Positions 40,621-40,830 of a stretch of 42,691 nucleotides of DNA are shown in pieces. This stretch comes from Candidatus Kerfeldbacteria bacterium (GTDB lineage: Bacteria; Patescibacteriota; Patescibacteriia; SBBC01). Under the pieces are notes generated by a model. It saw nothing but the letters and a program-made list of their open reading frames with translations. It searched no databases and was not told where the DNA came from. Each line of letters begins with the position of its first letter. Within the stretch, counting starts at the first letter, position 1. The stretch lies in NCBI GenBank assembly GCA_016207275.1, contig JACQPY010000017.1:68479-111169 (forward strand). Reading direction: 5' to 3'. The translations under genes and the position numbers were made by a program.

Positions 40621-40699
40621 CCCCGTTAGAGAGCCCTAAATAATTAGTTCCATGTTAGGTGGTAGTTGTCAGATATTTCACGCGACTCTTTAACGGGGT
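40620..40699. mobile_element. 80-bp MITE-like element with 14-bp terminal inverted repeats
   Basis: ACCCCGTTAGAGAG ... CTCTTTAACGGGGT (13/14 match). Confidence 0.55.
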
Positions 40700-40727
40700 T
40701 GACACATTACTATAGTGAGCGTAGGGT
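40699..40727 (+). promoter_or_regulatory. sigma70 promoter for the leader peptide / tRNA locus
   Basis: TTGACA-N17-TAGGGT, 8 nt before ATG 40736. Confidence 0.6.
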
Positions 40728-40735
40728 GTCGGTAC

Positions 40736-40783
40736 ATGACATTCCAGACCAACAACGCGAATAATTTTCTACCCGCTGGCTAG
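40736..40783 (+). CDS. Putative Asn-rich attenuator leader peptide MTFQTNNANNFLPAG
   Basis: Four Asn codons in five positions (AAC AAC GCG AAT AAT); 3' end forms one arm of an antiterminator. Confidence 0.6.
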   Translation: MTFQTNNANNFLPAG

Positions 40784-40803
40784 CGGTCTGTTTGCAGTTG
40801 CTG

Positions 40804-40830
40804 GCCGGCGGAAAAATCGCCGGCTTTTTT
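40804..40830 (+). terminator. Intrinsic terminator (attenuator)
   Basis: GCCGGCGG-AAAAA-TCGCCGGC-TTTTTT. Confidence 0.85.

Follow-up and report, generated by a model that had tools for sequence, protein, structure and literature searches.

The window analysed here is a 42,691-nucleotide (nt) stretch from the genome of a Candidatus Kerfeldbacteria bacterium (genome G000 in our set; 952 kb in 21 contigs, about 92% complete). Near its downstream end, a promoter is followed by a 15-codon open reading frame (ORF) that contains four asparagine codons, by an intrinsic terminator and by a tRNA-Asn gene. A first-pass annotation of this DNA had proposed that these elements form an Asn-sensing, ribosome-mediated attenuator placed before the tRNA gene, and the sequence analysis described below supports that interpretation. 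The promoter, the ORF, two complementary segments (A and B) and the terminator that it placed between 40699 and 40830 are all present by sequence. The parts of the unit and the tRNA gene are as follows.

40699-40727, forward strand: sigma-70-type promoter, with TTGACA at 40699-40704, a 17-nt spacer and TAGGGT at 40722-40727 (from the sequence and a loose promoter scan).
40736-40783, forward strand: leaderless or near-leaderless leader ORF of 15 codons, peptide MTFQTNNANNFLPAG, with the stop codon TAG at 40781-40783.
40773-40786, forward strand: segment A, CCGCTGGCTAGCGG, the 5' strand of the antiterminator, which spans the leader stop codon (from folds).
40788-40797, forward strand: small spacer hairpin, the apical loop region of the folded antiterminator, which varies among G000 and the relatives G001 and G003.
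40798-40811, forward strand: segment B, TTGCTGGCCGGCGG, which pairs with A or, through 40803-40811, serves as the 5' arm of the terminator.
40803-40830, forward strand: intrinsic terminator, with a stem at 40803-40825 of nine pairs, seven of them G-C, an AAAAA loop and six T at 40825-40830.
41036-41109, forward strand: tRNA-Asn(GTT) of the second of two kinds defined below, the presumed regulated gene (ARAGORN; Rfam tRNA, 69.7 bits).

The -10 hexamer, TAGGGT, agrees with TATAAT at three of six positions, and a stricter promoter scan omits the promoter that the looser scan reports. The ATG at 40736 lies 8 nt past this hexamer and is preceded by no Shine-Dalgarno sequence. The four Asn codons among the 15 of the ORF form two pairs, AAC AAC at 40751-40756 and AAT AAT at 40760-40765. 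Both ARAGORN and Rfam detect a single tRNA around the leader, the tRNA-Asn(GTT), which has the D arm TAGTTTAATTGGTAAAAC and does not encode CCA. The first-pass picture needs one correction, in that this is not the sole tRNA-Asn of the genome: a second tRNA-Asn(GTT), of quite different sequence, is located on contig C6. The gene in the window begins 205 nt beyond the T-run and so does not directly adjoin the terminator. When 40500-41600 was searched with cmscan against Rfam version 15 at E values up to 10, the tRNA alone exceeded its gathering score, and neither a leader family nor a T-box was matched; the remaining five matches were to unrelated families, far under their thresholds.

Folding of the region gave two mutually exclusive structures. 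As the first-pass annotation had stated, A can pair with B over 14 base pairs (bp), four of them G-U, and B overlaps the 5' arm of the terminator. This A:B antiterminator is the minimum-energy fold of 40734-40835 (-33.7 kcal/mol, z = -2.97, with 2 of 200 shuffled sequences equally good), and 40773-40835 on its own adopts the same fold at -29.3 kcal/mol, a stability reached by none of 200 shuffles. When A is excluded (40794-40835), the terminator hairpin forms instead, at -17.0 kcal/mol, so that folds with and without A behave as had been predicted. The A:B helix region alone (40766-40811) folds at -28.5 kcal/mol, compared with -15.4 kcal/mol for the terminator hairpin alone, and segment A by itself forms a 5-bp hairpin of -5.9 kcal/mol. 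Within the ORF, no conserved upstream partner for A (a "segment 1") was found, and the fold of 40736-40797 is no more stable than its shuffles (z = -0.19). The unit is thus predicted to function like known ribosome-mediated attenuators while being a three-segment variant of them. Because a segment 1 is lacking and A:B is favoured in the untranslated RNA, the predicted default without translation is readthrough.

To examine conservation at close range, 40621-40860 was compared by BLAST with 41 related genomes. The stretch from leader to terminator was matched in G001, of the same genus (82% identity), and in G003, of the same family (83%). G001 has TTGACG, 17 nt, TAGAGT and, after 9 nt, a GTG followed by NCVNNNANNLLPAG and a stop codon; G003 has TTGACA, 17 nt, TATTAT and, after 9 nt, an ATG followed by IFLSNNENNFLPAG and a stop codon, the Asn-bearing part being MIFLSNNENNFLPAG. 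In both, the reading frame and its Asn codons are kept, with synonymous changes (GCG to GCA, CTA to TTA). Segments A and B and the 3' arm of the terminator are invariant across the three genomes, and the spacer and the terminator loop vary. The tRNA-Asn gene begins 80 nt past the T-run in G001 and 39 nt past it in G003.

We also fetched 80 loci around homologues of a VirD4-like gene that lies upstream of the leader in the window. A downstream tRNA-Asn was present in three of them, namely the loci of G001 and G003 and locus L063. The last belongs to a low-GC genome and shows the same design in unrelated sequence: its leader reads ATG-(AAY)7-CAG TAC TGG GGC TGA, and its stop-codon segment, GGGGCTGAAGTGTTTT, can pair with AAAACATTTAAGCCCC, a segment overlapping the 5' arm of a GCCCCCG-TCTAT-CGGGGGC-TTTTT terminator.

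More distant examples were collected by means of the tRNA itself. A tRNA-Asn pattern search (gap N{11,15}) through 301 genomes of the class gave matches in 240, many of which had two. The matches fall into two kinds: the first has the D arm TAGCTCA..GGTAGAGC, as in the C6 gene of the window genome, and the second has TAGTTYA..GGTARAAC, as in the window gene. With a stricter pattern specific to the second kind, 62 of the 301 genomes gave a match. In a phylum-wide sample of 401 genomes, this pattern occurred in 11, comprising 9 of the 25 from the same class (the window genome included) and 2 of the 376 from elsewhere. One of these two other-class genomes also has an Asn-rich leader, MRKTINNSNCNNYRS.

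The initial sample consisted of 20 second-kind loci chosen by tRNA sequence alone, to which 30 loci were added (28 of the first kind; one of the second kind, L105; and one without a tRNA row, L111). Within 300 nt upstream of the tRNA, an ORF with at least four Asn in seven codons was found at 20 of 21 second-kind loci and at 0 of 30 first-kind loci. The sole second-kind exception, L130, carries NNN. Leader peptides such as MKFTANNNNNNNHPIAG, MKHLTNNQANNNNQF and MKFTRQNNNNNNNNRYMAG illustrate this sample. We then scored all 62 class loci over 400 nt upstream, taking ORFs of 8-75 codons and recording the best Asn count in any seven-codon window, together with control tRNAs, as listed here.

Second-kind tRNA-Asn (62 genomes): best count at least 4 in 51, exactly 3 in 7, 2 or fewer in 4.
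First-kind tRNA-Asn (n = 29): at least 4 in 0, exactly 3 in 2, 2 or fewer in 27.
tRNA-Gln (n = 41): at least 4 in 0, exactly 3 in 5, 2 or fewer in 36.
Other tRNAs (n = 8): at least 4 in 0, exactly 3 in 2, 2 or fewer in 6.

An Asn-enriched short ORF therefore lies upstream of the second-kind tRNA in 51 of 62 genomes and upstream of 0 of 78 control tRNAs, which, with the in-frame Asn codons of G001 and G003, bears out the expected conservation. Outside the census, Asn-rich leaders were found in seven more genomes (G001, G003 and those of loci L135, L137, L138, L141 and L142; in the last five, the D arm of the tRNA begins ATAGTT). Within the window genome, 5 of 13703 short ORFs are equally Asn-rich. 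Two others, on C4 and C6, of the four were inspected and had no terminator arrangement. The first-pass annotation had also suggested looking for cognate-codon leaders before other tRNAs. None was present at the other 27 tRNAs of the window genome, so that among its 28 tRNAs the tRNA-Asn of the window alone has a leader rich in its cognate residue.

Some second-kind loci are more complex. In G171 (L132), one leader precedes two tandem tRNA-Asn genes, the first with an odd D arm, and in G047 (L145), a first-kind tRNA-Asn, a leader and a second-kind tRNA-Asn follow one another in that order within 450 nt. G170 (L187) and G045 (L162) each have two closely spaced pattern matches.

These counts bear on the possibility that the unit senses translation generally, through ribosome availability or coupling, and that the Asn codons merely slow the ribosome. 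With no conserved upstream segment to enforce termination, any failure of translation should give readthrough, which favours such a device. Against this, the residue is always Asn and the gene behind it is always tRNA-Asn in the 51 genomes; the 41 tRNA-Gln genes of relatives have neither Asn-rich nor Gln-rich leaders upstream; and four AAY codons have been kept in a 15-codon ORF of the GC-rich window genome. We regard a general translation sensor as very unlikely.

We next considered whether the pairing is maintained among divergent loci. The segment from leader to terminator could be delimited at 64 of 66 loci; L197 has no detected terminator and L175 no Asn-rich ORF, and L153, L155 and L156, which have no leader, were left out of this set. 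The leaders proved too divergent for a confident MAFFT alignment, and we therefore compared the energies of cognate and non-cognate duplexes, dropping five loci (L163, L173, L174, L157 and L190) whose segments had been wrongly delimited by the script. Over 60 loci, the stop-codon segment pairs with the terminator 5' arm of its own locus at a mean of -13.3 kcal/mol, versus -8.7 kcal/mol for non-cognate arms, and none of 20000 permutations reached the observed cognate mean. When each group of similar arms was reduced to a single locus (n = 29), the means were -13.0 and -8.3 kcal/mol, again with 0 of 20000; an earlier run had used 21 loci. A helix that excludes the terminator is thus the minimum-energy fold in the window, and cognate duplexes are the stronger ones across the set.

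The architecture was tabulated at 30 loci. All 30 have a hairpin and a T-run between leader and tRNA. At 24 of them, a TAnnnT hexamer ends 6-12 nt upstream of the ATG and is preceded, at a distance of 16-18 nt, by a -35 element with at least five of six matches; this spacing indicates messages that are leaderless or have very short leaders. Measured from the first base of the last Asn codon, segment A begins at a median distance of 10 nt (range 4-19); its end lies a median of 10 nt (range -4 to 16) past the first base of the stop codon. The footprint of a ribosome extends approximately 12-13 nt downstream of the first base of the codon in its A site. The observed spacing fits a geometry in which a ribosome stalled on Asn codons would leave A free and one at the stop codon would cover it.

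At 17 of the 30 loci, the tRNA begins 1-20 nt past the T-run, which leaves no space for a promoter of its own, so that transcription there can come only by way of readthrough. In the window, where the spacer is longer, the looser scan of the forward strand from 40826 to 41040 found no promoter-like site between terminator and tRNA. A separate tRNA promoter, which the first-pass annotation had named as grounds for abandoning the attenuator, is accordingly not what we find. The same close spacing weighs on the idea that the short ORF and its terminator constitute an independent small-peptide or small-RNA gene that merely adjoins the tRNA. Termination would leave a stable RNA ending in a hairpin, and for the rhizobial trp attenuator, independent functions are reported both for RNAs derived from it and for leader peptides (PMC7968998). 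A free-standing gene would nevertheless not account for the dependence on readthrough at those 17 loci, the peptide is unconserved apart from the Asn run and the pairing segments, and the genes upstream change from locus to locus while the tRNA remains. We consider this explanation extremely unlikely.

The sequence elements, the two exclusive folds, the conserved architecture and its link to one kind of tRNA-Asn are observed features of these loci. From them we infer the positions of the ribosome, the response to Asn-tRNA and the increase in tRNA output in the following scheme. We think it likely that the unit acts as a ribosome-mediated leader-peptide attenuator of transcription, with charged tRNA-Asn as the sensed species and readthrough into the tRNA-Asn gene as the controlled step. 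Transcription would start at the ATG or within about 3 nt of it, and the ORF would be translated as a leaderless message. When Asn-tRNA is plentiful, the ribosome would reach the stop codon and cover A (40773-40786), B would pair with the 3' arm and transcription would terminate at 40830. When Asn-tRNA is scarce, the ribosome would stall at the Asn codons (40751-40765), far enough upstream to leave A free; A would then pair with B, the terminator would be blocked and RNA polymerase would continue into the tRNA. If no translation took place at all, A:B would form and readthrough would be the untranslated default.

The region between terminator and tRNA requires separate comment. It contains the following features.

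40838-40911, forward strand: spacer hairpin CCTCCCCTT-AAT-AAGGGGAGG, followed by a stretch shared with G001, where it leads straight into the tRNA.
40913-40926, forward strand: first tRNA-Asn 5' fragment, 14 nt (acceptor and start of the D stem), at the position of the intact tRNA of G001.
40954-41014, forward strand: second tRNA-Asn 5' fragment at 40954-40974 (21 nt, extending to the D loop), followed by a repeated hairpin at 40975-41014.

Compared with G001, the window has evidently suffered insertions between terminator and tRNA. The hairpin element at 40975-41014 reads CCCCGCAC...GTACGGGGCA, and this repeat, CCCCGYAC…GTRCGGGGCA, has at least 26 copies in the 952-kb genome. Several copies abut tRNA 5' fragments just upstream of intact tRNA-Asp, tRNA-Thr, tRNA-Val and both kinds of tRNA-Asn. 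The tail of a terminator-like site at 40899-40916 is not rich in T.

This spacer raises the alternative that the attenuator of the window is a relic: the tRNA, displaced 205 nt by the insertions, would be expressed otherwise or poorly, and the product would be a terminated RNA of approximately 95 nt. In its favour, the intact tRNA of G001 starts where the window has merely a 14-nt fragment, the spacer holds two such 5' fragments and a repeated hairpin element, and the genome has another tRNA-Asn. However, the promoter, ORF, A, B and terminator are intact, with key parts identical to those of G001 and G003, and the spacer has neither a promoter-like site nor, in the terminator-like site, a T-rich tail. 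Leader and tRNA have also been kept together despite intervening fragments elsewhere, with the tRNA 180 nt (L137), 140 nt (L140) and 113 nt (L146) from the T-run. We judge a relic unlikely. The intact parts of the attenuator, the lack of a promoter-like site in the spacer and the T-poor tail lead us to think that control by the attenuator has been retained in the window copy.

Asparaginyl-tRNA synthetase (AsnRS) offers a further candidate for the regulated function. The gene for this enzyme, asnS, scored above the family cut-off in 57 of the 62 genomes with a second-kind tRNA, versus 112 of the 239 others (odds ratio 12.9, p = 1.5e-11, for genomes that are kin and not independent). One could therefore suppose that the attenuator belongs to asnS, much as the pheM leader belongs to pheST, with the tRNA as a passenger and an orphan copy in most genomes, including that of the window. 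Besides the association of the tRNA kind with asnS genomes, this idea draws on gene order, since asnS follows the tRNA directly in G112 (at 38 nt) and G303 (at 60 nt) and directly precedes the leader in G228. Against it, asnS is directly downstream in these 2 of the 62 genomes only and lies elsewhere in the rest (58 kb away in the window genome), and the link between leader and tRNA in 51 of 62 genomes would be unexpected for an orphan. The first-pass annotation had held that asnS, asnA or asnB at this position in relatives would mark an orphaned attenuator; what stands behind the terminator is always the tRNA. An attenuator owned by asnS is most improbable, and because asnS mostly lies elsewhere in genomes with this tRNA, the attenuator is not an orphan of asnS.

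The second-kind tRNA and AsnRS nonetheless look like partners. The attenuator may plausibly be of benefit by enlarging the pool of acceptors available to AsnRS at times when charged tRNA-Asn runs low. The window genome has both asnS and gatB; a search for asnB gave no match above the family cut-off in this genome and one weak match, to the amidotransferase domain alone. A tentative suggestion, which we think rather unlikely as it stands, is that two routes to Asn-tRNA run on two tRNAs, a constitutive tRNA-Asn serving a non-discriminating aspartyl-tRNA synthetase with GatCAB, and the attenuated tRNA-Asn serving as the partner of AsnRS. The near confinement of the second-kind tRNA to AsnRS genomes and the occasional adjacency of AsnRS to this tRNA are compatible with it, as is the gene set of the window genome.

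Several observations weigh against a functional Asn-sensing attenuator, in the window or in general. The leader of G001 would need a GTG start. Best Asn counts of 2 or fewer occur in four genomes of the census: L153, L155 and L156, all of one family, have a promoter directly before the tRNA and no leader, and in L175 the ATG and the Asn run are in different frames owing to a run of A. In a further genome, G040 (L173), the leader ORF is down to one Asn codon, with A, B and the 3' arm kept. The A:B duplex, measured in a fixed window, is weaker than -8 kcal/mol at 11 of 60 loci; at some of these, the stop-codon segment pairs instead with the terminator loop and 3' arm. The census genomes are related, so that the p-values overstate the significance. 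The window copy is itself among the weaker ones, with four Asn codons, a -10 element matching at 3 of 6 positions and a 205-nt spacer filled with tRNA fragments. Transcription-translation coupling and leaderless translation are presumed to operate in these bacteria, and it is not obvious how a lack of asparagine itself would be relieved by additional tRNA. Four DNA sequencing runs of one groundwater study contain the window stretch, and there is no RNA run among the runs listed.

The G040 locus can be set beside that of G193 (L174), from the same genus. The pairing segments are kept in both (…CCAGTTCTGACTGGCC…), and the leaders differ, reading MTRSNLMIRVNNFNQF in G193 and MTTSRLLITVNSFYQF in G040. 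This difference may represent decay or an altered sensed residue.

The genes and other sequences that surround the unit in the window are listed next.

36959-39628: homologue of a type IV secretion system (T4SS) coupling protein (VirD4-like), upstream of the leader.
39678-40025: ORF without assignment, between the VirD4-like gene and the pilin-family ORF.
40031-40264: HicA-family ORF (Pfam HicA_toxin, 1.9e-12).
40249-40620: T4SS pilin-family ORF (Pfam, 2.5e-07).
40621-40698, forward strand: promoter-upstream cassette that ends in the -35 hexamer and is repeated before other genes.
41127-41306: debris past the tRNA and outside the attenuator, with a hairpin copy at 41133-41193 (reverse strand) and tRNA-Asn 3'-half-like sequence at 41194-41215 and 41266-41280.

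Genes for DnaK, a DEAD-box helicase and cysteinyl-tRNA synthetase occur farther upstream and indicate a chromosomal context. The ORF pair at 39678-40264 follows the pilin gene in G003 and is absent from G001. A 1668-amino-acid ORF at 9-5015 has no Pfam match, and neither has the open ORF at the window end (41593-42690), which encodes a highly repetitive protein rich in Ala, Thr, Asp and Ile. Most of the 80 VirD4-like loci (L018-L097) have a tRNA-Gln(CTG) approximately 3 kb downstream, often after one or two tRNA-Gln 5' fragments, so that similar fragment debris occurs at another tRNA.

The cassette before the promoter is 84 nt long when counted through the -35 hexamer (40621-40704) and ends in …TAACGGGGTTGACA. 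BLAST matched it to G000:C4:43646-43730 (79%), to contig C43 of G003 (84%) and to contig C1 of G005 (72%); the C4 copy precedes a protein-coding gene. G001 does not have the cassette, and its promoter overlaps the stop codon of the pilin gene; a similar site is found in the window at 40617-40644.

Past the tRNA, the 3'-half-like stretch (41194-41280) is interrupted by about 50 nt, and a similar 3' half lies past the tRNA in G003. Approximately 135 nt of 41127-41306 are repeated at G000:C11:165432-165564 (93% and 89%), with no tRNA in front, and compared with the C11 copy that of the window has an extra 47 nt inside the apparent T loop. The stem CCCCGTACA/TGTGCGGGG of this debris corresponds to CCCCGAACC/GGTTCGGGG in G003. 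At other loci, too, an intact second-kind tRNA-Asn is often nested between fragments of another tRNA-Asn. At L063:11775-11945, for example, a 5' half that ends in the anticodon loop (…CTGTTAA) comes first; a complete tRNA-Asn stands 12 nt beyond it and is separated by 10 nt from a 3' half that begins with TTAA, and the inner tRNA is flanked by the 7-nt inverted repeats TCCCGTA and TACGGGA. Junctions recur at other loci in the form of CTG followed directly by CCTGCCCGC (in the anticodon loop) or GGTA followed directly by CCCCGCA (in the D loop). The arrangement looks like that of an element that inserts into a tRNA-Asn gene and brings its own copy.

The proposed attenuator can be compared with three known types of control. 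Leader-peptide attenuators of enterobacteria govern the amino-acid biosynthetic operons trp, his, leu, thr, pheA and ilv. The present unit resembles the trp/his type in having a short ORF with a run of codons for the sensed residue, a terminator and an alternative helix that uses a terminator arm, with the position of the ribosome selecting the helix. It differs in that the target would be a tRNA rather than a biosynthetic operon, the sensed amino acid Asn and the host a member of the Patescibacteria. The message is also leaderless or nearly so, and there are three conserved pairing segments, the first of which spans the stop codon, so that a lack of translation should lead to readthrough and not to termination.

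In Escherichia coli, the pheM leader and its attenuator control pheST, which encodes phenylalanyl-tRNA synthetase. In that system, as in the one proposed here, a component of aminoacylation is under leader-peptide attenuation with feedback from the level of charged tRNA; the target there is the synthetase, whereas here it would be the tRNA, with asnS directly behind it in just the two genomes named above. In a T-box, no ORF is required: uncharged tRNA is bound directly, through a specifier codon and the T-box sequence. Like the present unit, a T-box reads the charging state of one tRNA and switches between terminator and antiterminator before aminoacylation genes. The unit described here differs in having a leader ORF with a run of Asn codons, and its Rfam matches included no T-box.

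To our knowledge, the known targets of leader-peptide attenuation are amino-acid biosynthesis operons and one synthetase operon, and we know of no tRNA gene among them. A search of the literature (Creative-Commons papers in PubMed Central and bioRxiv preprints) found no Asn leader peptide and no attenuator before a tRNA gene. What would be new is a tRNA gene as target, Asn as the sensed amino acid, the leaderless design with three segments, and the phylum; the mechanism itself is familiar.

If the proposal is correct, the level of a tRNA is adjusted according to the charging of that same tRNA, as read on the ribosome, which would be a direct feedback on supply. The unit would then add to the small number of gene-regulatory devices that have been defined in the Candidate Phyla Radiation, whose genomes are very small and have few recognisable regulators, and the approximately 60 natural sequence variants make it directly testable. 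The link to AsnRS and the presence of two kinds of tRNA-Asn in one small genome also raise the matter of how the direct and indirect routes to Asn-tRNA are divided. Were the two-route suggestion to hold, the Asn leader would bring the direct route on line when Asn codons are hungry, and regulation of the pathway would act on how much tRNA substrate is supplied and not on the supply of an enzyme.

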